DNA from: Candidatus Saccharimonadales bacterium
GTDB lineage: Bacteria > Patescibacteriota > Saccharimonadia > Saccharimonadales > DASZAF01
Assembly (NCBI GenBank): GCA_035480055.1
Contig: DATIIB010000001.1
Coordinates: 117,453-181,452 of the forward strand
Length of the DNA: 64,000 nucleotides
Direction of reading: 5' to 3'
Shown: one piece after another, positions 13,983 through 56,418 of the stretch
How the letters are laid out: each line of letters begins with the position of its first letter
Numbering within the stretch: position 1 is the stretch's first letter
Program-made: the position numbers and the translations under genes
The notes under the pieces: model-generated
Seen by the model: the letters and a program-made list of their open reading frames with translations, nothing else
Databases searched by the model: none
What the model was told of the DNA's origin: nothing

Positions 13983-14037
13983 ATACGAGGGTAATTATAC
14001 TGTTTTAGCGCCGCGAGGTCAATCTGTTCGTCAATAA

Positions 14038-14514: not shown

Positions 14515-14551
14515 TAGTCAAACCATACCACTTTGTGGCGATAATGGCAAT

Positions 14552-15486: not shown

Positions 15487-15829
15487 AAGTTAATTGAAAC
15501 ACAAACTTATAAGGAGCGTCCACGATAAGAAGAAGATTTCTTACTGTGGGCGCTCCTGTAGCTGCGTGACTTTCTTTGTAATTGATTTTTAGGAAAATAT
15601 TTTATTCTTTGTCGGTGACGTCGGTAATGCGAACTGGCTCAAGAGCGAGTTGCACATTTACTTCCTGTAATCGTTCGCTAATACGGTTTTGGAATTTTGC
15701 GATTCGGTTTTCGATACTCATTTTTTTGTGTTACCCTTCTTTTTATGTTGCTTGCTTTTTGTGTTACATACTTATGTAATGACTTAACATTAGCATAAGT
15801 ATAGTTATTTGTCAACAATATGGTAATGC

Positions 15830-17131: not shown

Positions 17132-17197
17132 CTGGCCCTAGTATACCACCGGGAAAGCTAGAGATTTTACCTCTTTGGGCGTACAATAACAGACATC

Positions 17198-28038: not shown

Positions 28039-29790
28039 ATGGAACAGGCATGGGGAACGCGGATAAAGACTGTAGTAGGAGACTACAAGCACCACGTTTT
28101 GGCGTGCACACTTATACTTGCATGGGTAATGCCGTATTTCACCAGCGGCACCCGAATGGAGCTGGGCGACTTTAGTTTTTTTAGCCAAGCATACGAAGCA
28201 ATTCGCATCAGCATCCTCCACTACCATCAGTTCCCATGGTGGAATCCCTGGGTGGCAGGCGGCGTTCCTTTGTACGCCAATCCTCAGATCGGTGTCTTCT
28301 CAATTCAGACCTTGCTTGTGTTCTTGTTCGGTGCAGTAGTTGGCCTAAAGATTTCGCTCGCGTTGTTTACCTTCTTTGGATACGGATCTATGTACCTACT
28401 GTTGCACCGCTACTTTAAAGTGCAAATTGTAGCCGCCACCTTGCTTAGCATACTATGGGTATTGGGCTCTTTCTTTGTTTCCCACCTACCAGCGCATGTG
28501 ACTTTTGCTTGGTATTTTGTGGCACCATTTTTTATATACCTGGCTTTAACTATCCGCACATGGCGTGGAGGTCTTGACCTTGGGCTAGCCATGGCCGTTA
28601 TGGCTTTAGCGCAGGTGCACAATCCCTTCTTCCATATCAGCACCATTTGCGGTGCTATTCTTGGCATACGCCTGCTTATGGGTTGGTCACCGCGTAAAGA
28701 GCTGCTGTATGGAATCCTGAGCGCTGGTGGCGTATTCATCACACTTGCAGGTCACCGCTTGATGCTTGCTGCGCATAATGTGAGTGACTTCCCACGAATT
28801 ATTCCTGATGAAGCCGCGCACCCCCTTGTTTCGGTGCTGGGTATTGTGTGGCCATTCTCGAATGCTCATACTTTTCGCGGCTTACTCACCCAGCCAAAAG
28901 CACCGTTTGGGTTTGCCGAAGTAACCGCGACTGAGGGCGTGTTTGCAGTATTCGCAGGACTGCTGTGCCTACTTTTCGTCGCATATAGTCTGCGCGGTAA
29001 ATGGCAAACACTTTTTAAAAAAGAATGGCGATTGCCTGCATGCGTGGCAGTTGTAGGGCTTGTCTTTCTAGCTATTGGATTTGGATCGGTGAATCATTTT
29101 GCCCCTTACGCGCTGATGAAGCACTTGCCAGTACTCAAAGATATGCGCGTCTCTTCCAGGTGGTTTCTCTTTTTTGATGGCGCGCTACTCACCTTTATCG
29201 GTGTAGTTGTGTCACGGATGCCCCAAAAATCGTTCGCCCGAATGGCTGTATTAACCTTCCTTTGTCTAGGAATCATAGAGTTATTTACATTAAACCTTGG
29301 CTATCAAAACAAACGAATGCCGCATAATCTACTCCGGGCACCTCAGTCCTCGTGGAACTACGCCTTCGACCAAACACACTTGATGGGCGCGAGCAAAGTT
29401 CTACCTGGTGGGCAGAAACTGCCAGACGACGGCCAGCTGGATGCCTTCTATCGTGAGTACGAAGCGACCACTTTTAATCTCGGTACACTTCAGGCCAATG
29501 ACGCTTTGGTGGATCTCAACACTAAGCCAACTCCACGTTGTGGCTACGAGAAGGGGTGTGAGCTTGTCCTATCAGGCAACGCCAAGCTGACCTTTTGGTC
29601 GCCAGATAAAATAGTCTTCACGCGTACTGGACCTGGCAAAATAAAGTTGAACATGAATGACTCTAACTATTTTGTGATTAACGGCCACCGCGATACACAC
29701 CTTTTGGTGGCTGAAGCATACCACGATTTTATCGTACCTGTGGGCGATAATGTACAAACTATCACCATTGCTGTTCAGCCTCGGCCGTAG
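28039..29790 (+). CDS. large polytopic membrane protein, possible GT-C fold glycosyltransferase (YfhO/ArnT-like)
   Basis: 583 aa, ~12 TM helices, then a ~150-aa extracytoplasmic C-terminal domain. Motif FPWWNPWVAGGVPLYANPQ in the first extracytoplasmic loop. Confidence 0.45.
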   Translation: MEQAWGTRIKTVVGDYKHHVLACTLILAWVMPYFTSGTRMELGDFSFFSQAYEAIRISILHYHQFPWWNPWVAGGVPLYANPQIGVFSIQTLLVFLFGAVVGLKISLALFTFFGYGSMYLLLHRYFKVQIVAATLLSILWVLGSFFVSHLPAHVTFAWYFVAPFFIYLALTIRTWRGGLDLGLAMAVMALAQVHNPFFHISTICGAILGIRLLMGWSPRKELLYGILSAGGVFITLAGHRLMLAAHNVSDFPRIIPDEAAHPLVSVLGIVWPFSNAHTFRGLLTQPKAPFGFAEVTATEGVFAVFAGLLCLLFVAYSLRGKWQTLFKKEWRLPACVAVVGLVFLAIGFGSVNHFAPYALMKHLPVLKDMRVSSRWFLFFDGALLTFIGVVVSRMPQKSFARMAVLTFLCLGIIELFTLNLGYQNKRMPHNLLRAPQSSWNYAFDQTHLMGASKVLPGGQKLPDDGQLDAFYREYEATTFNLGTLQANDALVDLNTKPTPRCGYEKGCELVLSGNAKLTFWSPDKIVFTRTGPGKIKLNMNDSNYFVINGHRDTHLLVAEAYHDFIVPVGDNVQTITIAVQPRP

Positions 29791-29799
29791 CGCCAACTG

Positions 29800-31164
29800 C
29801 TACTTAAGGATCTTCTTTTGGACAAAAGCATCAAACTGCTTATAGCTCTCGTCCCAACTGTGTTGATGGTACTGCGCCGCTATCTCCTTTTCTTTAGCAT
29901 GGAGGGTTTTATCGTCAAGATACTTCACGATAAGGTCGAGACATTCGCCAGCATCATACGGCGAGAAGTACTCGATGAGATCTCCTGCGATCTCAGGCAT
30001 CGAGCTCACATTAGTGGTTAGGCAAAGTTTGCCATAACCGAGCGCCTCGCCTACTGGCAATCCCCAACCTTCATACACTGCAGGGTAGATCACAAACCGG
30101 CAATGCTCATACAGCCACCGCGCTTCGGCATCATTGGCGTGCAAAAAGACAAACTTGTCACGAGTAACTGGATCAGTTTGAATTTGATAGATTGCATCGC
30201 CAACCAACCAACCCGCCCCACCAACAATCACGCAAGTAGGCAAGTCAATCCCACGTTGGGCAGCTAACCGATAGACAGTGTACAGCAAAGCAATATTTTT
30301 ACGATTGGTGAGCGTGGCCGGACCCCAAAAGATATACTCACCAGCTTTAATGCGCTCATCTGTAATAGTAGTCTCTTGACTCGAGATTGCGATCTGGTCA
30401 TCGCCGAGACGCATCAGTCCCACTGGAGGAATTGGGATAAACAGTTCCTTGCAAAAACGCTCAAAGTCGCGCTTGCTTGAAGCCGAGATCGACACAAGCC
30501 CATCGCTCAACTGAGCGGTCTCAAACATATTTTGCGTATACGAAAGAAACAGTCCTGGCGGTGGGAAAAGATGCGGCAAGTACGTTGGCACTAGATCATA
30601 CAGCACATTGACTAGCTTAAAGCCATGAATACGCTTCAGGCGACCGAGCGCGGGAAGTAACTCGGGATAGTCCCACGACGAGCCCAAGATGAGCACGACA
30701 TCACCTTTCGCAAAGGCGACCTGCGGCAAGGTGGCTGTTTGCGTCGCGGGTTGAGTGAGTATATGGTGTGCCTGTCGAGCCAACCCGACTCCACGGCGAT
30801 ATCCTTGTTTCATACGATGCTTTACAGTTATCGGCACCTTCTGTTTTATCGACTCAGGCATGCGCTTTAGCACCGCCTTGGGGAGTCGCTTCAACAATTG
30901 TTTTATGCTGCGTGGATCTCCTCCTGCCGCTACCTCATGCGTTTGCGCTACCTGAGTTGCTTCAATTTGGGCGCGAATAGGTGCAAAATCGGTTTCTAAA
31001 AAGCGCTTAGTAGGCGTATCAAAGACATAATAATTGACCTCTTCGCTGGAATCGGCGTAGCGCTTAGCAATGTTGAACGCGACGCGTTGCACGCCAGTCA
31101 GATGGCCTTTCCAGGTTTGCAGGTCGGTCAGATCAATCCATAAACGGTGAGCGTTAGCACTCAT
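29800..31164 (-). CDS. glycosyltransferase family 4
   Basis: VIYPAVYEGWGLPVGEALGYGKLCLTTNVSSMPEIAGD (EX7E). Start at MSANAHRLW with AGGAGG RBS. ATGA overlap with upstream GT4. Confidence 0.75.
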   Translation of the reverse strand: MSANAHRLWIDLTDLQTWKGHLTGVQRVAFNIAKRYADSSEEVNYYVFDTPTKRFLETDFAPIRAQIEATQVAQTHEVAAGGDPRSIKQLLKRLPKAVLKRMPESIKQKVPITVKHRMKQGYRRGVGLARQAHHILTQPATQTATLPQVAFAKGDVVLILGSSWDYPELLPALGRLKRIHGFKLVNVLYDLVPTYLPHLFPPPGLFLSYTQNMFETAQLSDGLVSISASSKRDFERFCKELFIPIPPVGLMRLGDDQIAISSQETTITDERIKAGEYIFWGPATLTNRKNIALLYTVYRLAAQRGIDLPTCVIVGGAGWLVGDAIYQIQTDPVTRDKFVFLHANDAEARWLYEHCRFVIYPAVYEGWGLPVGEALGYGKLCLTTNVSSMPEIAGDLIEYFSPYDAGECLDLIVKYLDDKTLHAKEKEIAAQYHQHSWDESYKQFDAFVQKKILK

Positions 31165-32381
31165 AATGCGCGTACCTCCTTTACTAAAGCTTCGAGGGAG
31201 TGCTGCCACAAAACTTGCTCGGCCATTTTGCGCTCAGCTGCGGTGCGAGCGACTGGCGGCGTGGTGAGAGCTTTATTAATCGCCTGGCGAAAGGCCGCTG
31301 GGGTATCGGCTATGTAAATGTTGGGAAGCTTCATTAGGTGCTCAAACGCTCGAAAAGCATGACTCGTGGCAACAATTGGCTTATCGGCCAAAATCGCCTC
31401 TGCGGTTTTGAGATTGGAGCCGCCGCCTTCGGTAATTGGCAGGATAATTACATCGCTAAGTGTCAGTAGGGCACCCAAGTCTTCGTCGCTCGGCCGACCA
31501 AGTGGCAAAACGCGCTGCCAAAAAGTGGCATGGGCAATGTGAGCGTCATGGCCATCAGCCGGTACTGCACCTTTAGCAAGATCAGATATCCCGCCTGCCA
31601 AGAGAATACGGCTCTCGGGGCCGATAAAACCCATCTGCAAACCAACCACATCCAAAAAACCCGTCCAGGCTGGCGGATGAGCGCTCGCTACAAACAGAAT
31701 CTTTTTGACGATTCCTTTGTCATTGAATTCAGCTAACCACCGCGCCTTAGCTTCGGCGGTTGTGATAATCGGTGCCATGCCGTTTGGCGCAAGCACTACT
31801 TTGTGCGCGCCCATCTTCTCGTAGGCCGTTACGTCGCTGGGCGTACAGGCAATTACCAGGTCGCTTGTCTTCGCTAACTCTTTTTCGATGGCATCAATTT
31901 CGCTGACCACTTTATCAATCTCAGCTTTGGGCACACCGGCATTGTGCAAAATTTCGCGTTTCATCGGCGCTTCAATATTATGCGTGCTACTGATGAGCTT
32001 ACCTTTATATCCAATCTCAGCTAACAATCGCCTAAGGCCAAAGTACGGAAAGCCTTGTTCGATCTCGATGATATCCGGCTTGAGCCGCGTAATCATAGTT
32101 ATAAAACGATTCTTAATCGCAGGGTCATCGTAAATCGCTTTGCCACTAACCACATCACCGGTGAATGGCGAAGCTTGAAGCTTAACGGTATATTCAGGCC
32201 CAAGAGGCACGTCTGTGCTATCGTAATCAGCATAAAAACCTTTAAAAAAGACTGCCGAAAACTGCACCTCATCAAAGATTTTGCGATAGGCGTTCACAAT
32301 GGCTTGCACTCGCTTCTGGCCACCATGCATCGGGTTGGCGATAGGGTAGGTGCCGACTAACAGAATCGTTTTATGTGCCAC
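31161..32381 (-). CDS. glycosyltransferase family 4
   Basis: GT-B two-Rossmann architecture. Part of a tightly coupled operon of GTs. Confidence 0.7.
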   Translation of the reverse strand: MAHKTILLVGTYPIANPMHGGQKRVQAIVNAYRKIFDEVQFSAVFFKGFYADYDSTDVPLGPEYTVKLQASPFTGDVVSGKAIYDDPAIKNRFITMITRLKPDIIEIEQGFPYFGLRRLLAEIGYKGKLISSTHNIEAPMKREILHNAGVPKAEIDKVVSEIDAIEKELAKTSDLVIACTPSDVTAYEKMGAHKVVLAPNGMAPIITTAEAKARWLAEFNDKGIVKKILFVASAHPPAWTGFLDVVGLQMGFIGPESRILLAGGISDLAKGAVPADGHDAHIAHATFWQRVLPLGRPSDEDLGALLTLSDVIILPITEGGGSNLKTAEAILADKPIVATSHAFRAFEHLMKLPNIYIADTPAAFRQAINKALTTPPVARTAAERKMAEQVLWQHSLEALVKEVRAL

Positions 32382-32382
32382 G

Positions 32383-34212
32383 TCATTTTCCTTCCTTAAT
32401 AAATTTCAGCAGCTCGGGGAATACCTCTGCTTGGCGCTTTAGAGCGTGCTCAGGCTCGGTGAGAAAATCACTGCTTGGCGTTTCAAACACAGGTAGAGTA
32501 ATTTTGTGAGCGGAGAGGGCGCGGCGTACTTTTTTGGCTATTGATTTTTGCGCAACTACTGCTTGCGCATTGCCAAGCAGGCTCGCGCCGTCAAAGAACG
32601 AACCTTTTTCAGCCGCCTGGTGCAGCCGAGCTTCTACCACTAATTGATCTTCGCTGATTAGCTTCTTTTTGGCCAGCTGCTGAACGGCTGGCCAAAAATC
32701 ACTCTGCGCAACATACAGAATTCCAGGAATGGTCAGCGCCCCCCGAAAAAGCTGCATATACTGCGGGTCGTTACTAACAAAATGCAGCACCTTGCTAAAC
32801 TCCTGCGTTTGCAGTCTATGGTACACTTCGCAGATATCATAACTCTGCGCAACCCATCGTACGTAATCAGGTGCGAGCTTTTGTGACGAATCGTCAACCT
32901 TGCCCGGATCAATAAAATACACTAGTTCAATGCCCGCTCGCAAGGCATAGCCATACAAACGCTGAGCAATCGCCGCCACCTCACGATCAACTCGCGGATC
33001 TGGGCAGAGTAAAGCCACTTTCTGGTGCGGGTGCCGAGGCCTTTCTGGTGGATGAGTAATCTGAGCAGTCAGTTCTGCCACCGAATGCGGCCAGTTGTAT
33101 TTGTCGGTAATCTCAGCGTAATGTGCTCGCTTACTTTCAAAGTCGACCCCCGCCAGGCCATGCCAAATAGCATCCGCAATTTCCTCTGGGTCATATGGGT
33201 CAAATACATAAAAAGCTTCCTTATAATGCGGCACTTCGCGGAACACCGGAATGTCCGCACAAAGGACTGGCTTTTGATACTCCACCCCCTCAAGTAATGG
33301 AATCCCTAGGCCCTCATACAGAGAAGGCATCAGCACTGCAGCGCAATTTTCAAACAGCACATGCATTTCTTCGCCGGTCAGGTTACCGCTGAATACCAGA
33401 TCTTCATGGGCCAGCGTCTGTAGCTCTTTACGGGCGTAGTCGTCAAAAACGGAGGTGATCACCAGCTTCACGTCTCGAGTTTGATGCCCCTCTTTAAACC
33501 GTTGAAAACCCTCTACTGCACGCAGGTTGTTCTTATGCGGCAGCGACGCATTTGGCATAATGATAAATAAAGTATCTTTAAGGTGCAGCCGTTCTAGCAC
33601 GCTGCTCACATCCTGCTTACCGGCCAGGGGCTTGATTGCACCATTAATATTCACGACCTTCTCAGCCGCTAACCCAAAATAGACCGCCACATCGTCAGCA
33701 GTGGTTTGCGAATCAGTCAGCACTACATCAGCTTCATATAACAAGCGAAAACGGCGGAAATACAGCGGTGGCGGAAAAAATTGCCCTAACGAATCCCAGA
33801 AGAGTAGCGGCGTAAGATCGTAAAACATAATCACTTTTGTACCTCGTGTGGGAAATACAGCCGCATAGAAAAAGAGGAACGGACACGGACTAAAGAAGGT
33901 GAGTTGATCATCTTCGGCATAGGTCTGATCGATAAACTCGTCGATTGCTTGACGAGCTTTCTTGTCTGGCTCGTCACCTTCTGGGTCAATTGGCAGGTCA
34001 AGCTGGACTAGCGTAGCGCCCGGCATTTCGACGCTAATTTGGGCCAGTCGTTCAGAGTCGATCGATAGGTTTCTATTCAGCACAATCGCTACTTGGCAGT
34101 CATTTTGCGTGGTGATAAAGGTAGTCAGCAAGCTACGCACATAGTTCCCCATCCCCCGATACCACGCGTTTGTCTGGAAAATCTGGCCATCGACAATTAG
34201 CACCTGGCTCAT
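32383..34212 (-). CDS. two-domain glycosyltransferase (WbdA/WbpX-like polymerising GT4)
   Basis: ~610 aa with central GT4 signature LMPSLYEGLGIPLLEGVEYQKPVLCADIPVFREV plus a second C-terminal GT-B-like module. Start at MSQVLIVDGQ with AGGAGG RBS. Confidence 0.7.
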   Translation of the reverse strand: MSQVLIVDGQIFQTNAWYRGMGNYVRSLLTTFITTQNDCQVAIVLNRNLSIDSERLAQISVEMPGATLVQLDLPIDPEGDEPDKKARQAIDEFIDQTYAEDDQLTFFSPCPFLFFYAAVFPTRGTKVIMFYDLTPLLFWDSLGQFFPPPLYFRRFRLLYEADVVLTDSQTTADDVAVYFGLAAEKVVNINGAIKPLAGKQDVSSVLERLHLKDTLFIIMPNASLPHKNNLRAVEGFQRFKEGHQTRDVKLVITSVFDDYARKELQTLAHEDLVFSGNLTGEEMHVLFENCAAVLMPSLYEGLGIPLLEGVEYQKPVLCADIPVFREVPHYKEAFYVFDPYDPEEIADAIWHGLAGVDFESKRAHYAEITDKYNWPHSVAELTAQITHPPERPRHPHQKVALLCPDPRVDREVAAIAQRLYGYALRAGIELVYFIDPGKVDDSSQKLAPDYVRWVAQSYDICEVYHRLQTQEFSKVLHFVSNDPQYMQLFRGALTIPGILYVAQSDFWPAVQQLAKKKLISEDQLVVEARLHQAAEKGSFFDGASLLGNAQAVVAQKSIAKKVRRALSAHKITLPVFETPSSDFLTEPEHALKRQAEVFPELLKFIKEGK

Positions 34213-36078: not shown

Positions 36079-36096
36079 AGACTTTTACCCTCTCTT

Positions 36097-37245
36097 CTAT
36101 TTGCGCTGTTGTGCTAAAAATTGCCCCAATTTCTCACCACTTGCTGTCCAGGAAAACTTGGCTACTTGTAGTATACCTTTTTTAATAAGCGCTGTCCTCT
36201 CTTTAGCTGAGAGCGAGCTTGCTTTCTGCATGGCATCGGCAATTGCGTCTACATCAAGCGGATCACAATAAATACCTGCGTCGCCAACTACCTCATGGAG
36301 TGCAGAAATATCGGCCGATACTACTACTGTTTCGGCAGCCATTGCCTCTAAGGGTGGCATACCAAAACCCTCATGGAGTGCAGGATGAACTAAGGCCAAT
36401 GCACCGCTCATCAAGGTACCGACTTCTTCGTCAGAAACATAGCTAGCTGGTTTGATTATAGTTGCGCCGGCCTTGCGTGCCTCTTCAATGGCCGCAAAAA
36501 TTGGCTCATTCAACCAGCCATTGCCACCAACGAGGACTAAGGCATAGTCTTTGGGGAGTTGCCGAAACGCAGCGATTAGCCGTTCCACATTTTTGCGTGG
36601 TTCAATATTGCTGACAAATAAGAAATATTGTTTGTCGATCTCATACTTCTTTTTCACCTGTGCGATTTCTTTTGAAGAATACGGCCTGTATATTTCTCGC
36701 TCAACCCCAATAGGAACAATCTTAATCTTGTCTGGTTGCACGTCAAAGTATTTCAAAAGTTCATGCCGGGAATTTTGTGAAGATGTCAGCACGTAATCTG
36801 TATTCGCAATAAAATAAGGGATGTTACGGCGTAGCATGCTCAGGTTGGATGGTTCGGTAAACTCCGGGTAAATTCGGAACGAGACATCGTACATATAGGT
36901 GAATGACTTGGAGCGTTTAGTGAGCGGCCAGTTGTTGTAGTTGCCAAAGAGATAAAAACCTGGACCGAGCAACAAGTCCATTGGTGGCAATAGATGATAG
37001 CGGCTCAAACGATTCATTACTCGGAGCTTTAAAGGAATCCCCTTGCGGCCGCAACTCGCGAGTCCTGGCCAACGATCCAGTAGGTGCAGCCGCTTACGTG
37101 GCCCCACGATCACGATCTCGAACTGCTCTTGAAACGCTTTATTCGTAGCCAGAGCCGCGACAATACCCGCTAATGCGTGCCCCACACCGCTCACACGGTC
37201 AGCTACCAAAGGAATACCCTCAACAAAAAGCTTGGTGCGAGCCAT
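36097..37245 (-). CDS. glycosyltransferase family 4
   Basis: HPALHEGFGMPPLEAMAAETVVVSADISALHEVVGDAG. Confidence 0.8.
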   Translation of the reverse strand: MARTKLFVEGIPLVADRVSGVGHALAGIVAALATNKAFQEQFEIVIVGPRKRLHLLDRWPGLASCGRKGIPLKLRVMNRLSRYHLLPPMDLLLGPGFYLFGNYNNWPLTKRSKSFTYMYDVSFRIYPEFTEPSNLSMLRRNIPYFIANTDYVLTSSQNSRHELLKYFDVQPDKIKIVPIGVEREIYRPYSSKEIAQVKKKYEIDKQYFLFVSNIEPRKNVERLIAAFRQLPKDYALVLVGGNGWLNEPIFAAIEEARKAGATIIKPASYVSDEEVGTLMSGALALVHPALHEGFGMPPLEAMAAETVVVSADISALHEVVGDAGIYCDPLDVDAIADAMQKASSLSAKERTALIKKGILQVAKFSWTASGEKLGQFLAQQRK

Positions 37246-38447
37246 CAGTCCTTGGTCTCTTTTTTGAGAGAGAGTTTAATGGGCGGATTAATTCGGTACG
37301 GTACTCGTTCCTCATTGATCACTTCAAATTGGGCTGCTTCTTCCCACCAATCGCAGATGGTCACGTTATCACGGTGAGTTACCGCAGGGTCTACATAATA
37401 AACGCCGTCGCTAAAGAGATTATGCATCTGCCACTCCACGGTCACCCTGTCACCTTTATGCAGCCAGCCTACATGCTGGCGCTTAATCTGGGAATTAGTG
37501 CCCATTAGCTGTTCGCCACTTTGACTGCGAATCACAAAACCGAAAATTGGGTCTTCGATATCCTCATGCACTTCGGCGATGGCGGTAATGGTTAAAGGTT
37601 GGTTGTTATCGGTCAGCAGGGGAGTACCAATGGCCACCTTCGTATAAACTGCCTTTTTGTTTCCCCATCGCTTTGCTTTCTTCTCTTGTACTTGACCTTT
37701 GGTTGGCTCATTAAAGAGCTGCGTGTATTGAGTAGCAATGGTATCCGGAGTGCCAATGTCTACAATACGCGACTTTTCAATCAACAAAGCGCGATCGCAA
37801 TATTCGCGCACTGCGTTCATATCGTGCGTCACAAAGATAACGGTCTTTTTGTTCTTTTTGAGGAGCCGAAAGTATTCAAAGCATTTACGCTGGAATGAAG
37901 CATCGCCTACTGCCAATACTTCATCCACCAGCAAGATGTCGCCATCGGCCATGATAGCCACCGAGAAGGCCAAACGCACCTGCATACCAGAAGAATAATT
38001 CTTGAGCTTCTGGTCCATAAAGCGATGAAGTTCAGCAAAGTTAACGATCTGCTCGTACTGTGCATCGATTTCTTTTTTAGAGAACCCGAGTAATGCGCCG
38101 TTAAGGTATACATTCTCGCGACCAGTCAGCTCGCCGTTAAAACCTACCCCAAGTTCAATAAAGGGGACGAGCTTACCGCGTACTCCGATTTGCCCCTTAG
38201 TAGGCTGATAGATACCGGCCAACATCTTAAGCAGCGTACTTTTACCGCTTCCGTTACGGCCAACGATGCCAAAGAATTCACCTTCCTGGACTTCAAAATC
38301 TATATCGCTTAAAGCGTGTTGGACTTCAGACCCTTTGGCCTTTGGCTGGAATATCCCAGTCACCGCTTGTTTAATGGAGTCTCTCTTTTCGTGCGGCAAA
38401 ATAAAATCTTTGTATACGCCATCGACGACAACTGCTGGTTCTGCCAT
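37245..38447 (-). CDS. wzt: O-polysaccharide ABC transporter ATP-binding protein with C-terminal carbohydrate-binding domain (Wzt-like)
   Basis: Walker A GRNGSGKST, signature LSGGMQVRLAF, Walker B ILLVDE. Extra ~150-aa C-terminal domain as in Wzt. Confidence 0.85.
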   Translation of the reverse strand: MAEPAVVVDGVYKDFILPHEKRDSIKQAVTGIFQPKAKGSEVQHALSDIDFEVQEGEFFGIVGRNGSGKSTLLKMLAGIYQPTKGQIGVRGKLVPFIELGVGFNGELTGRENVYLNGALLGFSKKEIDAQYEQIVNFAELHRFMDQKLKNYSSGMQVRLAFSVAIMADGDILLVDEVLAVGDASFQRKCFEYFRLLKKNKKTVIFVTHDMNAVREYCDRALLIEKSRIVDIGTPDTIATQYTQLFNEPTKGQVQEKKAKRWGNKKAVYTKVAIGTPLLTDNNQPLTITAIAEVHEDIEDPIFGFVIRSQSGEQLMGTNSQIKRQHVGWLHKGDRVTVEWQMHNLFSDGVYYVDPAVTHRDNVTICDWWEEAAQFEVINEERVPYRINPPIKLSLKKETKD

Positions 38448-39248
38448 TTAAATCTCCTCCGCAAAATAACGTGAACGTTTTCGGAAATACCATGCAGCGA
38501 TAATTGTGCACAGCACCACAATACTCAGTGGAATTATTCGCACCCAAGCGTGACCATAAATGCTGGCAATGGTAGGGGTGTCGTGTGACAACACCAAATA
38601 CCGCATATCCTGGGCCATCTGAGCCACCGGATTGAGCATTAGCACCTTCAGCACTTTATGAGGGAGCAATGTCACTGGATAGATAATCGGCGTTGCATAG
38701 AAGGCAGCCTGCATTATCACTTCCCAAATATAGTTAATATCGCGAAGTCTCACAAATGCCGCGCTCAAGAAGAACGCCAGTGCCAAAGCAAACATAAACA
38801 GCTCAAAAATAAGTAGTGGCGCCAACAAGCCAGTCTTAAGCATTGGCGTATGGCTCATCAGCATAAAGATGATGACCACCACCACGTTAATTGCGAGGTT
38901 AATGAGCGCCGAAAGCGACCCTGCCAACACAATGACGTATTTAGGAAAGTTGAGTTTACGAAGTAAATCGCCTTTACCGACGATCGCTCCTACGCCACCG
39001 TTAGTTACTTCGGCAAAGTAGTTCCAGACTACAATACCGAGCAATAGATAGATGGCATAGTGCGGAATACCCTTGCCAAAAAACTGTCCAAAAATAAGAT
39101 AGAGGATTAAGAAGATAGCCAGTGGCCGTAGCAATGACCACAGATACCCCAAAAACGATCCCTGGTAGCGAAGTTTGAAATCGGTAATAACGAGTTCTCG
39201 CAATAGAACAAGCGAATAATGGTAGCGGGTGTGGAATTTCTGGAACAT
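38448..39248 (-). CDS. wzm: ABC-2 type polysaccharide export permease (Wzm-like)
   Basis: 266 aa, six TM helices. Immediately upstream of wzt with a 1-nt gap. Confidence 0.8.
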   Translation of the reverse strand: MFQKFHTRYHYSLVLLRELVITDFKLRYQGSFLGYLWSLLRPLAIFLILYLIFGQFFGKGIPHYAIYLLLGIVVWNYFAEVTNGGVGAIVGKGDLLRKLNFPKYVIVLAGSLSALINLAINVVVVIIFMLMSHTPMLKTGLLAPLLIFELFMFALALAFFLSAAFVRLRDINYIWEVIMQAAFYATPIIYPVTLLPHKVLKVLMLNPVAQMAQDMRYLVLSHDTPTIASIYGHAWVRIIPLSIVVLCTIIAAWYFRKRSRYFAEEI

Positions 39249-39330
39249 AAAGCTTTAATTATTATATGGTTCGGAGAGAGTTTGAGCAACCATCGTTCTA
39301 CTCGCAGGTGTCGTGTATAATTGAGCCACA

Positions 39331-39906
39331 ATGACACAACTCCCTCCGCCCAAGCACGTCAGCAAGTGGAAAACGCTCGCCTCAGAGATGGCACTGGATG
39401 AAAAATGGTTCCCTGTTCGCAAGGATCGGATTGAACTGCCCCGAGGTAAAGTAATCGACGATTATTTTGTTTGGGAATCCCCGCGTATCGCCATGGTGGT
39501 GCCAGTGACTCCTGAGGGAAAGTTTGTACTTGTTCGCCAATATCGTCATGCACTTGGTGAAATCTTTTGCCAGTTTCCCGCTGGTGCATTAGATAAAGGC
39601 GAGCTAGCCGAAGCGGCAGCTATACGCGAATTACAGGAAGAAACTGGGTATCGCTGCCAAAAGTTAGTATTCCTTGGCTCACTTTCGCCTTACGCTACTA
39701 AGATGACGGGCGTCGTGGATGTCTATCTTGCCCAAAACGCAACCTTTGACCATCCGCCAGAGTACGACGAGCAAGAGGAAAGCGAGACAATTCTTTTAAC
39801 CCCGGAGGAGTTGGTGGCGCTTCCAGACACTCAAGAAGTTTTTGCGTCGGATCTCCTGGCTTGTATTTTTCTTGCCTTCCGGCACCTCGACTTGCCGTTG
39901 ACCTAA
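39331..39906 (+). CDS. Nudix hydrolase (possible GDP-mannose mannosyl hydrolase)
   Basis: Nudix box GALDKGELAEAAAIRELQEETGY. Adjacent to gmd, as gmm/wcaH is in other GDP-sugar loci. Confidence 0.7.
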   Translation: MTQLPPPKHVSKWKTLASEMALDEKWFPVRKDRIELPRGKVIDDYFVWESPRIAMVVPVTPEGKFVLVRQYRHALGEIFCQFPAGALDKGELAEAAAIRELQEETGYRCQKLVFLGSLSPYATKMTGVVDVYLAQNATFDHPPEYDEQEESETILLTPEELVALPDTQEVFASDLLACIFLAFRHLDLPLT

Positions 39907-39907
39907 T

Positions 39908-39937
39908 ACAAATGGCCGCGAGAAAGCGGCCATTTGT
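39908..39937. terminator. bidirectional intrinsic terminator between convergent nudix and gmd genes
   Basis: ACAAATGGCCGC-GAGAAA-GCGGCCATTTGT, a perfect 12-bp stem, with T/A-rich flanks. Confidence 0.5.
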
Positions 39938-39952
39938 ATATTGAAGAAACGT

Positions 39953-40963
39953 TTACTTAAAACGCTTCAAATCTTCATCGACCATCATCTTGATGAGGTC
40001 TTCAAAGCTGGTTCGTGGTTCCCAACCCAAGTCTTGCTTGGCTTTGGAGTAGTCACCCTTGAGTTCTTTAATTTCGGTTGGGCGCATAAATTTCTTGTCT
40101 TCGACAGCGTAATCTTCGTAATTAAGACCGACATGCTCGAAAGCGATTTGTAGCGCTTCCTTAATTGAGTGTGCAGAATTAGTACCAATTACGTAATCCT
40201 TTGGAGTATCTTGCTGAAGCATCAACCACATCGCTTCCACGTATTCTTTAGCGTAGCCCCAGTCGCGCATCATACTCATATCGCCCATATGCAGCTTACC
40301 GTCCTCGCCAATGAGGGGGTCACCAGCCTCATTTAGTGGCATATTTGTTGGTTGGTTCTTGATGCAGGCAACTCCGGCAGTAATTTTGCGAGTCACAAAG
40401 TGTAGCGAGCGGCGCGGACTTTCGTGGTTAAAGAGAATGCCGCCACAGACAAACATGCCATAGCTTTCTCGATAACAATTAATCATCATGTGTGCATAGG
40501 CTTTAGCGATGCCATAAGGGTTGTTGGCGAAAAGTGGCGTCTCTTCGGTTGCCGACTCGTCGTCACCACCAATGCCACCGAGAATTTCGCGACTAGTTGC
40601 CTGGTAAACCCGGGCGTGAGGTGCGAACTTCAGTACTGCTTCAAACACGCGAACAGGGCCAAGCGCGGTCACTTCACCAGTATAAAGAGCGTGTGTCCAG
40701 CTATCCGCGGGCACTGACTGAGCCGCAATGTTATAGACTTCGTCTGGCTGCGCTTCTTTGATAACTCGCTCAATGCTCCCGGCATCGGTCAGGTCAGCAG
40801 CTTCAATACGAATTTTGCCATATAAATGTTCGATATTTGGATGCTGGTAGTGCGTACTACGACGAATTGTCCCAGTTACTTCGTAACCCTTTTCGAGCAA
40901 TAAGTCAGCGAGGTAAGAACCGTCTTGTGATGTCACACCAATGATTACAGCCTTTTTTGCCAT
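39953..40963 (-). CDS. gmd: GDP-mannose 4,6-dehydratase
   Basis: MAKKAVIIGVTSQDGSYLADLLLEKGYEVTGTIRRSTHYQ is near-canonical Gmd. Start at ATG 40963. Confidence 0.9.
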   Translation of the reverse strand: MAKKAVIIGVTSQDGSYLADLLLEKGYEVTGTIRRSTHYQHPNIEHLYGKIRIEAADLTDAGSIERVIKEAQPDEVYNIAAQSVPADSWTHALYTGEVTALGPVRVFEAVLKFAPHARVYQATSREILGGIGGDDESATEETPLFANNPYGIAKAYAHMMINCYRESYGMFVCGGILFNHESPRRSLHFVTRKITAGVACIKNQPTNMPLNEAGDPLIGEDGKLHMGDMSMMRDWGYAKEYVEAMWLMLQQDTPKDYVIGTNSAHSIKEALQIAFEHVGLNYEDYAVEDKKFMRPTEIKELKGDYSKAKQDLGWEPRTSFEDLIKMMVDEDLKRFK

Positions 40964-41056
40964 GTAATTAAAGTCCCTTCTGGTTAGCAAATAGTACCCC
41001 CATTTATATCATCTATCGAGAGGGAAGGAAACTGGCAGTGATGGTACAATACAGCT

Positions 41057-42004
41057 ATGCAGACAAAAAATATCTTAGTGACAGGTGTTAATGGTTTTGT
41101 GGGCCATCATCTTGCCAAAGAACTCACAAACCACAAGATCGGCGTGATCGGCGTGGGGTCTCAACCGCAACCCGCTGCCGCTCTCCAGCCATTCCTCTTA
41201 GACTACGTACAATGCGACCTCACTGACGAAGCCGCGGTCGACAAGCTTCCGCTCAGCAAAGCAACAGCAATCATTCATTTAGCCGCAATGGCCTCTAAGG
41301 CACTTTCTTTTACCAAGCCCAAGGAAAGTATAAATTCTAATAGCAATATGGTCATTAACCTTTTCGAAGCTGCGTTGCGACAGGATGCACACCCGCGTTT
41401 TGTGCAAGTAAGTAGCGGCGCTATCTACCGTTCAGACCAGCCAATGCCACTGACCGAAGCAAGCGAATTAGGCGCTGACTCTCCTTATGCAATCGGCAAG
41501 ATTTTGTGCGAACAGCTGTGTGAATATTATGGCAAGCGTGGGTTTGAATACGTTATTCTACGACCTTTCAATCACACCGGGCCTGGCCAAGGTCTAGGGT
41601 ACCTTATTCCTGATTTAACCAGCAACGCCCTCAAGGCAGGTAAGGGCGGAGAATTGCTTACAGGCAATTTGTCTTCCAAGCGCGACTACAGCGATGTTCG
41701 TGATGTCGTCCGCGCCTACACCATGATAGCAACTGCAGAGAAAATTCCTCATTCCATCTATAACGTCTGCTCGGGGGAGAGTCATTCGGGGGAAGATATC
41801 TTGCGATTAATTACCGAGGCTTTATACGACAACGAGACCGCGCTTACCTCCAAGGTAGACGAATCTAAGCTTCGCCCTTTCGAACCCTCGGATATCGTCG
41901 GAGATCATTCTCTCCTTTCGGAAGACTTTGGTTGGCAGCCCCAAATCTCTCTCGAGCAGACCATCACTGACTATGCGGCCTGGTTTGAGAAAGAAGCGCA
42001 CTAG
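41057..42004 (+). CDS. NAD-dependent epimerase/dehydratase; GDP-4-keto-6-deoxy-D-mannose reductase (Rmd-like) or GDP-fucose synthase
   Basis: N-terminal ILVTGVNGFVGHHLAKEL Rossmann. SDR catalytic YxxxK (YAIGK). 315 aa, size and N-terminus closer to Rmd than Fcl. Confidence 0.6.
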   Translation: MQTKNILVTGVNGFVGHHLAKELTNHKIGVIGVGSQPQPAAALQPFLLDYVQCDLTDEAAVDKLPLSKATAIIHLAAMASKALSFTKPKESINSNSNMVINLFEAALRQDAHPRFVQVSSGAIYRSDQPMPLTEASELGADSPYAIGKILCEQLCEYYGKRGFEYVILRPFNHTGPGQGLGYLIPDLTSNALKAGKGGELLTGNLSSKRDYSDVRDVVRAYTMIATAEKIPHSIYNVCSGESHSGEDILRLITEALYDNETALTSKVDESKLRPFEPSDIVGDHSLLSEDFGWQPQISLEQTITDYAAWFEKEAH

Positions 42005-43110
42005 TGAGAATCGTAATTGATGCCCGTAACATCAATACTTCGACTGGCCGATATGCTGAGCGATTGATTCATTACCTCGAGGAACTTGATACTACCAATG
42101 AATATATTGTGTTGGTGCTGCAAAAAGACATTAACTTCTACAAGCCGCAGAACCCGAACTTTAGCGTCAGGGGAGTGAAGTATCCGTGGTTTAGCCTCAG
42201 CGAACAGCTGGGAATGGCTCGCTACCTCTACTCGCTCAAGGCTGACTTGGTGCATTTTACAATGATGCATCACCCTATTTTCTATTTTCGTCCGTACGTG
42301 ACCACCTTTCACGACCTTACACTCTTAAAGACCTACAACAGCGACAAAAACTATGTCGTATACAAAGTGAAGCAGTTTATTGGCCGCTTTGTGTATCAGG
42401 CTATGGCGCATTGGTCGACTCACCTGATTACGCCGACCAAGTTTGGCCGCAATGAGTTAGTGGCATTTAGCCATATCGACCCGAGTAAAGTGACGGTCAC
42501 CTACGAAGGGGGAGAGACGACCGCCCAAAAGGCGAGGTCATATCGTGAGTTACGCGACAAAAACTATCTCCTGTATGTAGGCCAACAAAGTGATTACAAA
42601 AATATCCGGCGCTTAATGCAGGCGCATCAGCAGCTTCGACGCACGCATTCAGATTTATTGCTCGTGCTCGTGGGACGACTCAGCGGCAAAAATGGCAAGC
42701 CGCTCCAAACTAATCGTCAATGGGCTAAAGAGCAGGGCTTTAAAGGGATTATCTACACCGATTTTGTGCCTGACGATCAACTAGTCTGGCTGTTCCAACA
42801 CTGCAGCGTGTACGTGTTCCCCTCGCTTATGGAAGGCTTTGGCTTACCTGGGCTCGAGGCCATGGGCTACGGAGCGCCAGTCGCCAGCAGTAACGCAACC
42901 TGTCTGCCAGAGATATATAAAGATGCAGCACTTTATTTTGACCCCTGTAATGTCGACAAGATGACCTCTGTTATTGGGCAAATCCTGGATAGTAAAAAGC
43001 TGCAAGAAGAGTTGAGAGTCAAAGGCGCCAAAGTAAATGCTCAGTACTCGTGGAAACGAATGGCCGCACAAACGCTAAAAGTTTATAAAACTATTTTTAA
43101 ACAAAAATAG
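42004..43110 (+). CDS. glycosyltransferase family 4
   Basis: FPSLMEGFGLPGLEAMGYGAPVASSNATCLPEIYKDAALYF. Confidence 0.8.
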   Translation: MRIVIDARNINTSTGRYAERLIHYLEELDTTNEYIVLVLQKDINFYKPQNPNFSVRGVKYPWFSLSEQLGMARYLYSLKADLVHFTMMHHPIFYFRPYVTTFHDLTLLKTYNSDKNYVVYKVKQFIGRFVYQAMAHWSTHLITPTKFGRNELVAFSHIDPSKVTVTYEGGETTAQKARSYRELRDKNYLLYVGQQSDYKNIRRLMQAHQQLRRTHSDLLLVLVGRLSGKNGKPLQTNRQWAKEQGFKGIIYTDFVPDDQLVWLFQHCSVYVFPSLMEGFGLPGLEAMGYGAPVASSNATCLPEIYKDAALYFDPCNVDKMTSVIGQILDSKKLQEELRVKGAKVNAQYSWKRMAAQTLKVYKTIFKQK

Positions 43111-53803: not shown

Positions 53804-53820
53804 ATACCCTCTCTCATAAC

Positions 53821-56415: not shown

Positions 56416-56418
56416 TAC

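Follow-up and report, generated by a model that had tools for sequence, protein, structure and literature searches.

An ABC-transporter-dependent glycan locus of Saccharibacteria with a candidate chain-terminating methyltransferase

Introduction

Saccharibacteria are tiny, parasitic bacteria with a Gram-positive-type envelope that lacks LPS. A contig of Candidatus Saccharimonadales nevertheless carries a locus (28039-43110 of the 64 kb stretch analyzed here, the window) with the same gene logic as the E. coli O8/O9a and P. aeruginosa common polysaccharide antigen (CPA) loci. What would such a locus make in this host? A first-pass annotation had read it as following O-polysaccharide logic and as making a capped homopolymer. 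Taken as a whole, that interpretation is partly supported by our analysis. We think that the locus is probably a Saccharibacterial (candidate phyla radiation) ABC-transporter-dependent, terminator-capped glycan assembly line, which would produce a non-LPS envelope polymer.

Results

The interval encodes five GT4-type transferases, two FkbM-family proteins, Wzm, Wzt with a Wzt_C domain, Gmd, an Rmd-type reductase and a Nudix hydrolase; ManC is located outside it, at 22245. All genes named in the first-pass annotation are present where it placed them, with significant family matches. Their clustering is far beyond chance, and the gene order is common to most of 80 related loci (sister loci): jag / GT4d, gmd, rmd, wzm, wzt, GT4c, methyltransferase, 609-aa transferase, GT4b and GT4a. 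Synteny extends over about 60 Saccharibacteria genomes, in which the usual neighbors are jag-yidC-rnpA-dnaA.

This setting bears on whether the locus could be a diderm's LPS O-antigen locus of the classical CPA/O9a type. The shared gene logic would fit, as would the Wzy_C (WaaL-family) gene that the window contains and that some sister loci include. However, the contig belongs to Saccharimonadales, and nearly all of the 80 related loci are from Saccharibacteria or Patescibacteria. Wzt, in identical form, and the 609-aa transferase are also recorded from a Candidatus Saccharimonadales MAG. The few labelled Proteobacteria, Verrucomicrobia or similar carry Saccharibacterial synteny, which suggests mis-binning. 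The rnpA-yidC-jag-dnaA order in the window, with a short YidC of 343 aa, is a monoderm/CPR arrangement, and no lipid A, core or Lpt genes were found within the 64 kb. An LPS O-antigen locus is thus highly improbable. Given a host from a group without LPS, the product is very probably not an LPS O-antigen, nor the O-polysaccharide or CPA of the earlier reading.

The sugar supply appears to start from GDP-mannose. ManC, a mannose-1-phosphate guanylyltransferase (22245-23291, minus strand), contains NTP_transferase and ManC_GMP_beta-helix domains, and is matched by the N-terminal part of TIGR01479 with 271 bits. Sister genomes, too, have ManC downstream of the locus. Gmd (39953-40963, minus strand) matches PF16363 over its full length (329 bits) and TIGR01472 with 326 bits, the cut-off being 415; it shares 78% identity with its counterpart in one sister locus, L054, but only about 40% with most others. 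The SDR-family reductase (41057-42004, plus strand) has as its top PDB matches the Rmd enzymes of A. thermoaerophilus (2PK3, E 5e-36) and P. aeruginosa (6X3B, E 3e-31). The Y-x3-K motif is seen in the alignment. No Fcl was found in the PDB search at E ≤ 1e-10, and the NCBIfam Fcl model scores 54 bits against a cut-off of 500; Fcl was rejected as an assignment. By sequence, the enzyme groups with Rmd, a GDP-4-keto-6-deoxy-D-mannose 4-reductase, and the predicted C4 stereochemistry of its product follows from this grouping. The GDP-6-deoxyhexose branch proposed earlier is thereby supported, as a route from GDP-mannose.

The SDR subfamily of Rmd also includes GDP-6-deoxy-D-talose synthetases, and the reductase shows only moderate identity to the Rmd enzymes of solved structure. 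The enzyme might then yield GDP-6-deoxy-D-talose or another C4 epimer in place of GDP-D-rhamnose, and the polymer would be a 6-deoxytalan or mixed. We consider this quite unlikely: both top matches are Rmd enzymes defined by biochemistry, and the polymer exported by the closest Wzt homologue is rich in D-rhamnose.

The Nudix hydrolase (39331-39906, plus strand; NUDIX E 5e-18) is of the NDP-sugar/ADP-ribose pyrophosphatase type. NDPSase_N is annotated on an identical protein, and the top PDB match is Bd-NDPSase (5C7Q), whose best substrate is GDP-mannose. The protein had been described as Gmm-like; it is a Nudix enzyme, but it has no match to Gmm/NudD and resembles NudF and NDP-sugar pyrophosphatases. 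Found in only 8 of the 80 sister loci, it may trim the GDP-sugar pool.

The five annotated GT4 transferases are borne out by Pfam families, one of them weakly. The 609-aa transferase (32383-34212, minus strand) consists of a complete GT4 GT-B module (residues ~1-390), followed by a Rossmann-like domain (~393-609). Its AF2 model has a pLDDT of 92. Foldseek matches to MshA, BshA, PimA and the mycobacterial methylmannose polysaccharide (MMP) mannosyltransferase span only about 400 columns. The motif E300-x7-E308 is invariant. The C-terminal domain is modeled with a pLDDT of 94 and gives only weak GT-B matches. A 792-aa homologue is colinear with the protein through its own residues 1-577 and then runs on into a second donor lobe. 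The C-terminal domain is the N-lobe of a lost second GT-B module, making 1.5 modules in all. Unlike WbdA, to which it had been likened as a two-domain enzyme, the protein therefore has one complete module and only the N-lobe of another. It is a candidate chain-extending enzyme.

The other transferases vary in their conservation. GT4a (454 aa; 29800-31164, minus strand; Glycos_transf_1 E 3e-12), the last gene of an eight-gene operon, has the canonical E-x7-E motif EGWGLPVGE and is kept in 53 of the 80 sister loci. GT4b (406 aa; 31161-32381, minus strand), a divergent GT-B protein with weak matches to Glyco_trans_1_4 and Glyco_transf_4, lacks this motif; the equivalent stretch is TEGGGSNLKTAE. 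It is found in 23 of 80. GT4c (382 aa; 36097-37245, minus strand; Glycos_transf_1 E 2e-27; EGFGMPPLE) is found in 71 of 80, a count that may include cross-hits among GT4 genes. GT4d (368 aa; 42004-43110, plus strand; Glycos_transf_1 E 1.5e-27; EGFGLPGLE) is found in 64 of 80 and always adjoins jag. Its positional counterpart in Southlakia, SEML1_0900, is essential. GT4d is a candidate primer or adaptor transferase. With five transferases, both GDP-mannose and GDP-D-rhamnose available and a mixed rhamnose/mannose polymer in the Aquifex analogue described below, the homopolymer of the first-pass annotation is not established.

Two FkbM genes are adjacent, as annotated, but only one of the pair is intact. 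The 297-aa SAM-dependent methyltransferase (35185-36078, minus strand) matches PF05050 with E 5e-25 and TIGR01444 with 78 bits (cut-off 37.7). It preserves both motif I and the KIDVEGHE motif, and its C-terminal tail is short, helical and basic. The degenerate 327-aa paralogue (34209-35192, minus strand) matches PF05050 only in part (E 8e-11) and falls below the TIGR01444 cut-off. It keeps SAM motif I, whereas the K-[IV]-D-[VI]-E-G-x-E motif is gone, as is a segment of 34 aa. The two proteins are 36% identical, with an internal gap of 33 aa. Among about 55 orthologues, this loss is found only in the window and in locus L004. The C-terminal tail of the 327-aa protein (residues ~190-327) is helical, basic and conserved; sister loci have homologues of it as stand-alone ORFs, situated upstream of the transferase. 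These proteins form a decay series, from an intact long FkbM through a degenerate methyltransferase domain with the tail (window and L004) to a tail-only ORF. The 327-aa protein is a candidate non-catalytic scaffold or tether.

The position of these genes suggests a role for the intact enzyme. In sister loci, the slot directly upstream of the 609-aa transferase is occupied by one or two FkbM genes, by a divergent FkbM with a coiled coil, or by a WbdD-like methyltransferase with a kinase. In L055, the slot protein matches E. coli O9a WbdD over both domains (E 2e-30). The methyltransferases of the window thus hold a terminator position, in line with the methyl cap at the chain end that had been proposed. 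The 297-aa FkbM is a candidate chain-terminating O-methyltransferase.

The transporter provides a second line of evidence. Wzm (38448-39248, minus strand; ABC2_membrane E 1e-14), an ABC-2 permease, is the first gene of the operon. It resembles galactan Wzm and KpsM models and is present in 61 of the 80 sister loci. Wzt (37245-38447, minus strand) combines an ABC ATPase (ABC_tran) with the annotated C-terminal carbohydrate-binding domain (CBD; Wzt_C, E 1.2e-23; residues ~250-400). Its top PDB match is the full-length Aquifex Wzt (8DKU, E 3e-72), spanning both NBD and CBD. In Aquifex, the polymer is composed of D-Rha and D-Man and is capped with 3-O-Me-Rha/Man, and Wzt binds this cap through N313, W362 and A348. 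Two independent alignments place N318, A355 and W367/W368 of the window Wzt at the positions of N313, A348 and W362. The pocket is near-invariant in 60 orthologues (N318 in 59, W367/368 in 47-50, A355 in 43). Like Aquifex Wzt, the window protein thus keeps the Asn, the Ala and the methyl-stacking Trp of the cap pocket; the cap contacts T346, H350 and H355 are not kept. The isolated CBD gives a weak match to that of Aquifex (E 1e-3, 24% identity) and no match to that of O9a. The pocket Asn and Trp are equally kept in 20 loci in which tblastn found no FkbM, several of which have other methyltransferases or a WbdD-like gene. An ABC-transporter-dependent logic with a carbohydrate-binding Wzt is supported. 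On sequence grounds, the idea of capping gains support from the Aquifex-type residues in Wzt and the WbdD-like enzymes that fill the FkbM slot elsewhere.

The methyltransferase may instead act on internal residues, giving a poly-O-methylated rhamnan or mannan with no terminal cap, whose length and export are set otherwise. FkbM enzymes are generic O-methyltransferases, and we know of no member of the family that terminates glycan chains. Among the many GT4s that the 609-aa transferase resembles is the MMP mannosyltransferase. The two methyltransferases of the P. aeruginosa CPA locus, when overexpressed, behave unlike WbdD. Set against these points are the WbdD-type terminators in the same slot, the methyl-stacking Trp and Asn in the Wzt CBD, and the contrast between the five transferases that make the polymer and the one intact methyltransferase available to modify it. 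Internal methylation is therefore unlikely, and terminal capping is the reading that we prefer.

Additional genes may serve to decorate and attach the chain. The first ORF of the interval (28039-29790, plus strand), left undescribed in the first-pass annotation, encodes a 583-aa polytopic membrane protein with no Pfam match of its own. Hydropathy indicates at least eight hydrophobic segments and, after these, a soluble domain at the C-terminus. D44 is invariant in its family of about 90 members, a few of which match YfhO, DUF6311, DUF6044 or PTPS_related; one member carries a GtrA fusion. Searching the PDB by profile found nothing. Homologues co-occur with GT2 and GtrA in L005, L007, L018, L027, L037 and L062. 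The window contains a GT2 polyprenyl-phosphate sugar synthase (23491-24483, plus strand; Glycos_transf_2 E 2e-33; best NCBIfam matches PgfS and ArnC) and a GtrA-family flippase (24447-24887, minus strand; GtrA E 1e-19), which would be parts one and two of a side-chain system. Weak remote matches make the 583-aa protein a candidate for the third, a GT-C-type extracytoplasmic glycosyltransferase.

A Wzy_C (O-antigen-ligase family) membrane protein (15830-17131, minus strand; Wzy_C E 8e-16) is a candidate ligase, and a WbaP-type polyprenyl-phosphate hexose-1-P transferase (17198-18637, plus strand; Bac_transf E 7e-63; TIGR03025 371 bits, above cut-off) is a candidate initiating enzyme. Both may equally belong to a separate Wzx/Wzy-type set in the window. 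Neither a WecA/TagO-type initiator nor an LCP ligase was found within the 64 kb.

There is a monoderm precedent for such a combination. S-layer glycan pathways comprise a WbaP-type initiator, Wzm/Wzt, a methyl cap and a Wzy_C transferase. Modeled on those of Geobacillus and Aneurinibacillus, the polymer could be the glycan carried by a glycoprotein of the cell surface, either S-layer-like or an adhesin, and would then be initiated by the WbaP-type enzyme at 17198 and transferred to protein by Wzy_C at 15830. The window has all slg-type parts, namely a WbaP-like PGT, Wzy_C, Wzm/Wzt, transferases and a methyltransferase. Homologues of Wzy_C lie inside the ABC locus, where a Wzy polymerase would not be needed, in L003, L004, L008, L038 and L083, and the best Rmd match is from A. 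thermoaerophilus, which bears a D-rhamnose S-layer glycan. However, these five are the only such cases in the loci examined, and no S-layer or acceptor protein was identified. The window Wzy_C and PGT adjoin a Wzx flippase and extra transferases, and so may simply constitute a separate Wzx/Wzy pathway, as SEML1_0079-0083 of Southlakia have been read. We regard a glycoprotein as a possible but doubtful destination. It concerns the final acceptor only and is compatible with the capped assembly line.

Discussion

Our analysis suggests how the assembly line might work. We infer the identity of the sugars, the position and chemistry of the cap, and the anchor of the polymer. ManC, Gmd and the Rmd-type reductase belong to families that would supply GDP-D-mannose and GDP-D-rhamnose, the latter depending on the predicted C4 stereochemistry. 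By homology, the five GT-B transferases would assemble the polymer at the cytoplasmic face, using a polyprenyl carrier, with the 609-aa enzyme as the family-defining member. The intact FkbM would O-methylate the non-reducing end. More speculatively, the decayed FkbM may contribute nothing but its conserved tail, which might serve to tether or space the complex. The C-terminal domain of Wzt, through Asn318, Ala355 and Trp367/368, would recognize the cap, and the finished chain would leave through Wzm/Wzt. Outside the membrane, GT2, GtrA and the 583-aa GT-C-like protein may add side-chain sugars from a polyprenyl-phosphate donor. The acceptor could be peptidoglycan, protein or lipid, with the Wzy_C protein as a candidate ligase.

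The locus is kept near the replication origin across Saccharibacteria and is without prior description. In cultured Southlakia, its positional equivalent (Wzm, Wzt with Wzt_C, transferases and GtrA adjoining jag) is essential in Tn-seq.

Organization of the glycan locus

The first-pass annotation described positions 28039-43110 as an ABC-transporter-dependent locus for a capped polymer resembling D-rhamnan or mannan. Its observation is confirmed and its interpretation is partly supported. Every gene that it named is present in the ORF listing and in the Pfam and NCBIfam scans. Eight genes on the minus strand form an operon in which neighbors abut or overlap. These are wzm (39248-38448, ABC2_membrane), wzt (38447-37245, ABC_tran), a GT4 (37245-36097), an FkbM of 297 aa (36078-35185), a second FkbM of 327 aa (35192-34209), a GT4 of 609 aa (34212-32383), a divergent GT-B (32381-31161) and another GT4 (31164-29800). 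Upstream of the operon are a divergent Nudix gene (39331-39906) and gmd on the minus strand (40963-39953). An SDR reductase (41057-42004) and the jag-proximal GT4 (42004-43110) form a divergent pair. ManC is located at 22245-23291. The interval opens with a polytopic membrane protein of 583 aa (28039-29790), which the annotation left undescribed. Rfam and tRNA scans of the locus found nothing.

The sugar-nucleotide branch

The reductase at 41057-42004 is Rmd-type as judged by its relatives. Its best solved relatives are 2PK3 (E 5e-36, 128 bits) and 6X3B (E 3e-31, 113 bits), the two biochemically defined Rmd enzymes, and the SDR Y-x3-K motif is present. Fcl, the alternative that would direct the branch to GDP-L-fucose, is rejected. 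No Fcl or GDP-fucose synthase is found among the 43 PDB matches at E <= 1e-10, and the NCBIfam Fcl model gives 54 bits where its cut-off is 500 bits. Clustering with Fcl, which the annotation had named as evidence against its reading, does not occur. The predicted product is GDP-D-rhamnose or GDP-6-deoxy-D-talose.

The Nudix protein had been called Gmm-like, an assignment that did not hold. Its best matches in NCBIfam and PDB are NudE, NudF, ADP-ribose pyrophosphatases and Bd-NDPSase, the last being the best of all, and Gmm appears in neither list. Gmm/NudD is ruled out, and the protein groups with NudF and with ADP-ribose and NDP-sugar pyrophosphatases. Bd-NDPSase prefers GDP-mannose in vitro. 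It is plausible that the Nudix protein trims the GDP-sugar pool.

The window Gmd (39953-40963) is 78% identical to Gmd of L054, one of the related loci described below, and only 37-43% identical to those of most other sister loci. In contrast, Wzm and Wzt are 50-69% identical throughout. This split points to either two lineages of Gmd or a sugar cassette that was replaced laterally. L003, L004 and L005, the closest loci by the 609-aa transferase, have no gmd or rmd within their flanks. In a paper on Patescibacteria phages, gmd and rmd are reported as auxiliary genes, and LPS is assumed.

Conservation of the locus and its host

The envelope of Saccharibacteria is of the Gram-positive type and lacks LPS, so that the locus would not make an O-antigen in the strict sense. 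An LPS O-antigen ligated by WaaL to lipid A-core, as implied by the models chosen in the annotation, does not suit a Saccharimonadales genome, and no lipid A, Lpt or other LPS genes are found within the 64-kb window.

The locus is bordered by jag, yidC, rnpA, dnaA and dnaN. Alignment of the 609-aa transferase with its homologues was used to fetch 80 related loci, nearly all from MAGs of Saccharibacteria or Patescibacteria. A tblastn search with the window proteins detected Wzt in 65 of the 80, the jag-proximal GT4 in 64, Wzm in 61, Gmd and Rmd in 47 each and FkbM in about 45. Only 8 of the 80 have the Nudix gene. The gene order that recurs among the loci is yidC-jag, then GT4, gmd, [nudix], rmd, wzm, wzt, GT4, methyltransferase, 609-aa GT, [GT-B] and GT4, followed by [583-aa protein], the lectin-like protein and, farther on, ManC (brackets mark genes that are not always present). 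Two more contigs, reached through FkbM homologues, have the same order. Wzt and the 609-aa transferase are identical, residue for residue, to proteins on a 491-kb contig of the Candidatus Saccharimonadales MAG GCA_964479845.1.

Seven of the related loci (L009, L017, L050, L056, L057, L066 and L083) come from MAGs labeled Cytophagaceae, cyanobacterium, Actinomycetota, Pseudomonadales, Gammaproteobacteria or Verrucomicrobiae. Their synteny is typical of Saccharibacteria and their Wzm and Wzt are 50-60% identical. The odd labels are likely due to binning contamination; gene transfer is less likely. Several relatives contain a succinyl-CoA-synthetase-like pair (ATP-grasp beta subunit and alpha subunit) inside the glycan locus, at 2952-4864 in L023, 2853-4761 in L062 and 2393-4316 in L067. 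The pair is also found in Southlakia (SEML1_0896 and SEML1_0897) and is absent from the window locus. It may be a sign of acyl or succinyl modification of the polymer.

A gene block in the cultured Southlakia epibionticum ML1, SEML1_0889-0900, adjoins jag as the window locus does (Wang et al., 2023; PMC10633639). Its Tn-seq tables score most of these genes as essential. The mostly essential set includes the GT4 SEML1_0900, GtrA, GT2s, Wzm (0894) and Wzt with Wzt_C (0893), and a YfhO-like GT-C (0889) and lectin-like proteins are adjacent. The paper leaves the Wzm/Wzt glycan and its transporter undiscussed. Compared to the window, the Southlakia locus has GT2-type polymerizing enzymes, and no gmd, rmd or FkbM is among the gene-table rows covered. 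On those rows, the Southlakia block is thus a positional equivalent with other chemistry.

The transporter and proposed cap recognition

The annotation had proposed Wzm together with a Wzt carrying an extra C-terminal domain of the carbohydrate-binding type, and the sequence comparisons bear this out. Wzt_C (PF14524) matches Wzt residues 258-379 (E 1.2e-23). The best PDB match is the full-length Aquifex aeolicus Wzt, covering both the ATPase and the C-terminal domain (E 3e-72). The C-terminal domain alone aligns weakly to the Aquifex carbohydrate-binding domain (CBD), with E 1e-3 and about 24% identity. The annotation had also suggested a comparison with the CBD of E. coli O9a Wzt; this structure (2R5O) is undetectable by sequence with the window CBD alone.

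The Aquifex WzmWzt transporter (PDB 8DKU, 7K2T, 6O14) exports a D-Rha/D-Man polymer capped with 3-O-methyl-Rha/Man, and its use of GDP-Man and GDP-D-Rha donors follows the logic predicted for the window. In its cap-binding site, Asn313 contacts the ring oxygen of the cap. A small pocket consists of Leu300, Thr346, Ala348 and Trp362, which stacks on the methyl group, and the cap is further held by His350 and a ‘trap loop’. Two independent alignments place Asn313 at N318, Ala348 at A355 and Trp362 at W367/W368 of the window Wzt. The contacts Thr346, His350 and His355 are replaced. Among 60 Saccharibacterial Wzt orthologues, N318 is present in 59, W368 in 50, W367 in 47 and A355 in 43. The hinge-helix Tyr241, which aligns one position before the O-antigen-contacting Tyr233 of Aquifex, is present in 58 of the 60. 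The conservation of N318, A355 and W367/368 makes the CBD a candidate cap binder. The pocket residues are equally conserved in loci with and without detectable FkbM. Aquifex is a diderm that ligates its polymer to lipid A-core, unlike the Saccharibacterial host of the window locus.

The FkbM pair and the proposed terminator slot

The annotation spoke of paired FkbM methyltransferases. The two genes are indeed paralogous (36% identity) and the 297-aa protein is intact; the 327-aa copy is decayed. The 297-aa FkbM scores 88.9 bits with PF05050 and 78.3 bits with TIGR01444, against a cut-off of 37.7 bits. In an alignment of about 55 FkbM ORFs from sister loci, it keeps motif I (YVDVGAN), K[IV]D[VI]EGxE and a segment of 34-41 residues. 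The 327-aa FkbM scores 23.4 bits with TIGR01444, which is under the cut-off, and its Pfam match is partial. In this protein and its orthologue in L004, the second motif is lost (it reads KIAVKELG) and the whole 34-aa segment is gone. The 327-aa protein is homologous to FkbM and probably not catalytic. Solved relatives of either FkbM are not detectable by sequence. A search of 5.8 billion proteins returned 2575 relatives; the best 120 of the 2575 are named only with the generic ‘FkbM family methyltransferase’.

The window contains no WbdD. In sister loci where tblastn found no FkbM, other candidate terminators are located at or near the slot directly upstream of the 609-aa transferase. L036 and L075 have a divergent FkbM with a C-terminal coiled coil. 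L003, L019 and L024 have a class I methyltransferase with an N-terminal coiled coil. In L037, L047 and L055, the slot holds a protein of 461-495 aa in which a kinase-like domain follows a methyltransferase domain. In L055, both domains of this protein match E. coli O9a WbdD (4UW0, 4AZS; E 2e-30). The window has an intact FkbM where L037, L047 and L055 carry WbdD homologues. This is the strongest comparative result. Since the slot holds the archetypal WbdD terminator in some lineages and FkbM in others, a terminator role for FkbM is the most economical reading, and the 297-aa protein becomes a candidate chain terminator.

The 327-aa FkbM retains a tail of about 140 residues. L003, L008, L024 and L025 encode this tail by itself, as an ORF of about 150 aa immediately upstream of the transferase gene. 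The L003 ORF and the L004 tail share 34% identity (E 5e-22), and the ORF matches the window tail as well. These proteins can be read as a decay series, from a long FkbM to a dead methyltransferase domain with a tail and then to the tail alone. Such a series would indicate that the tail has a function of its own. More speculatively, the tail may tether or space the complex, as the C-terminal region of WbdD would suggest by analogy.

The 609-aa transferase

The AlphaFold model of the 609-aa transferase has a high confidence score (pLDDT 92). A GT-B fold spans residues 1-390 and can be superposed over about 400 columns on GT4 enzymes such as MshA, BshA and PimA. The protein has one Glycos_transf_1 domain and one E-x7-E motif, and E300-x7-E308 is invariant in it and its homologues. 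Residues 393-609, the C-terminal ~215 aa, form a separate Rossmann-like lobe. Modeled alone, this C-domain has pLDDT 94 and gives weak matches, the most probable of which are GT-B enzymes.

Distant homologues of the enzyme are multi-module GT4 proteins. On a 1.05-Mb contig, a homologue of 792 aa takes the equivalent place in the locus. Its sequence runs colinear with residues 3-575 of the window protein (E 2e-70), after which comes a second donor-binding lobe (Glyco_trans_1_2, residues 613-755, E 5e-11). This arrangement indicates that the 609-aa enzyme is a truncated derivative of a two-module, WbdA-like protein. By this comparison it combines one predicted working module with the N-lobe of a second and lacks the second donor lobe. 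Profile-profile hhalign of the C-domain against the enzyme’s own two GT-B lobes gave no signal, and BLASTP against the distant multi-module matches P0036 and P0045 gave nothing. The question of a second module is settled only by the colinear homologue. The annotation’s ‘two-domain’ polymerizing enzyme is correct in shape. It is not correct in function, as only 1.5 GT-B modules are present, instead of two complete WbdA-type modules.

A probable side-chain system and neighboring genes

Two parts of a predicted three-component extracytoplasmic glycosylation system are located near the locus. The first is a PgfS/ArnC-like GT2 (23491-24483) and the second is GtrA (24447-24887), a clear match. The 583-aa membrane protein has no Pfam or NCBIfam match, even at E 5, and a profile search of the PDB with it gave only noise. 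It is likely the third, GT-C part. Members of its family show weak matches to YfhO, DUF6311, DUF6044 and PTPS_related, which link them weakly to the GT-C clan, and one member is fused to GtrA. The family has an invariant Asp in the first loop, and homologues co-occur with GT2 and GtrA.

Between these genes, on the plus strand, lies a secreted lectin-like protein of 619 aa (26173-28032). The N-terminal domain matches no known family. Repeated ‘WHFENLDGD’ blades at the C-terminus, encoded by a 165-bp tandem repeat (27275-27707), faintly resemble a fungal fucose-specific lectin. No PDB relative of the protein was found. Homologues of its N-terminal part adjoin the glycan locus in most sister loci. 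The lectin-like SEML1_0890 and 0891 occupy the same position in Southlakia and are essential.

A search for an LCP ligase within the 64-kb window found none. In five relatives, full-length homologues of a ligase-family protein (Wzy_C, 15830-17131) lie within the ABC locus; in the window, a WbaP-type initiator adjoins the Wzy_C gene. These two genes recall S-layer glycan pathways of Firmicutes. They may instead belong to a separate set of the Wzx/Wzy type. This second set, at 1041-4390 and 15022-19893, is split by ~11 kb of unrelated genes. It consists of a GT2 (1041-1877), a GT4 (1874-3067), a Wzx flippase (3107-4390), a second GtrA (15022-15486), Wzy_C, a WbaP-type transferase (17198-18637) and a GT4 (18637-19893).

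A CHAP-domain peptidoglycan hydrolase of 557 aa (ScrM/PcsB-like, 19890-21563, minus strand) lies between the two glycan sets. Farther upstream, a class A beta-lactamase-like protein (11892-12785) is followed by a pentapeptide-repeat protein (12782-13426). On the minus strand at 13438-15010, tRNA-Asn (13908-13982) lies between genes for a SET-domain protein (13438-13899) and a LexA-type DNA-binding protein (14552-15010). Ku (4341-5231) and a three-domain LigD (5235-7697) on the plus strand (4341-7697) make up a full pair for non-homologous end joining, in a genome that is very small. Past dnaN and recF, the minus-strand region 51083-63981 encodes a 906-aa protein with phage-tail lysozyme and amidase domains. 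It is followed by type IV secretion-like genes, including a VirB4/TraG-type ATPase (56419-58362), PrgI (59432-60319) and TrbL/VirB6 (63247-63981). Large proteins of 864 and 963 aa in this region have no family match. Southlakia also has an essential T4SS near dnaA.

Discussion

ABC-dependent, cap-terminated glycan assembly is a mechanism class that is already known. The E. coli O8/O9a pathway for polymannan (WbdA, WbdB, WbdC, WbdD, Wzm and Wzt) shares with the window enzymes of the GT4 mannosyltransferase type. There, the terminator caps the non-reducing end and the Wzt CBD reads the cap; the equivalent roles in the window are predicted. The differences are that the candidate terminator in the window is FkbM and not WbdD, that the polymerase has 1.5 GT-B modules compared to two, and that a lipid A-core acceptor like that of E. 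coli is probably absent from the window system.

The CPA system of P. aeruginosa (gmd, rmd, wbpX/Y/Z, wzm, wzt and PA5455-PA5459) shares the Gmd and Rmd branch, and its Rmd (6X3B) is the second-best match of the window reductase. Like the window, it has GT4 enzymes, which are rhamnosyltransferases, and a Wzt with a C-domain. Two methyltransferases in the CPA locus are jointly needed for polymer production, and they do not behave like WbdD on overexpression. They may offer a partial parallel to the FkbM pair. However, both are class I enzymes similar to WbdD(O8), apparently functional and partly redundant, whereas the window pair is of the FkbM type with one copy decayed. CPA is linked to LPS, unlike the polymer predicted for the window.

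The slg pathways of Geobacillus stearothermophilus NRS 2004/3a and Aneurinibacillus thermoaerophilus are ABC-transporter-dependent and operate in monoderm hosts. They have a terminal O-methyl cap, a WbaP-type initiator and a Wzy_C transferase, and the A. thermoaerophilus Rmd is the best match of the window reductase. The window also carries a PGT and Wzy_C, and Wzy_C is inside some sister loci, but in the window they may form a separate Wzx/Wzy pathway. In the slg pathways one domain of the multi-module WsaE serves as the methyltransferase, and Geobacillus uses L-rhamnose; in the window the candidate is a separate FkbM protein.

What is new is the host group, the phylum-wide and origin-proximal conservation, the FkbM-type candidate terminator with its decayed partner and the 1.5-module transferase. 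No description of a Saccharibacterial Wzm/Wzt glycan, or of the group’s own envelope glycans, was found in the searchable literature.

A joint reading can be offered tentatively, as one that we consider rather improbable in its entirety. Saccharibacteria would carry an origin-adjacent, conserved and probably essential envelope polymer exported by an ABC transporter, which may replace teichoic acids. Its terminator would be interchangeable by lineage, being FkbM, a coiled-coil class I methyltransferase or a methyltransferase-kinase of the WbdD type. In the window, the ancestral long FkbM would be a pseudoenzyme kept only for its tail. The tail would bind to the remnant lobe of the second module in the 609-aa transferase, and together they would tether or measure the chain, comparable to the coiled-coil ruler of WbdD.

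Saccharibacteria are obligate epibionts whose surface mediates attachment to host Actinobacteria. If the reading as a methyl-capped surface polymer is wrong, the locus would be an ordinary polysaccharide cluster. If it is right, a known mechanism would account for a block of essential Southlakia genes that is so far unexplained. The related loci would then also form a natural series in which terminators and polymerase modules are swapped and decay, from a WbdD-like protein to FkbM, a decayed FkbM and a tail-only gene. This type of locus is a concrete, testable candidate for a major surface polymer of Saccharibacteria, predicted to be a methyl-capped chain of D-rhamnose/mannose.
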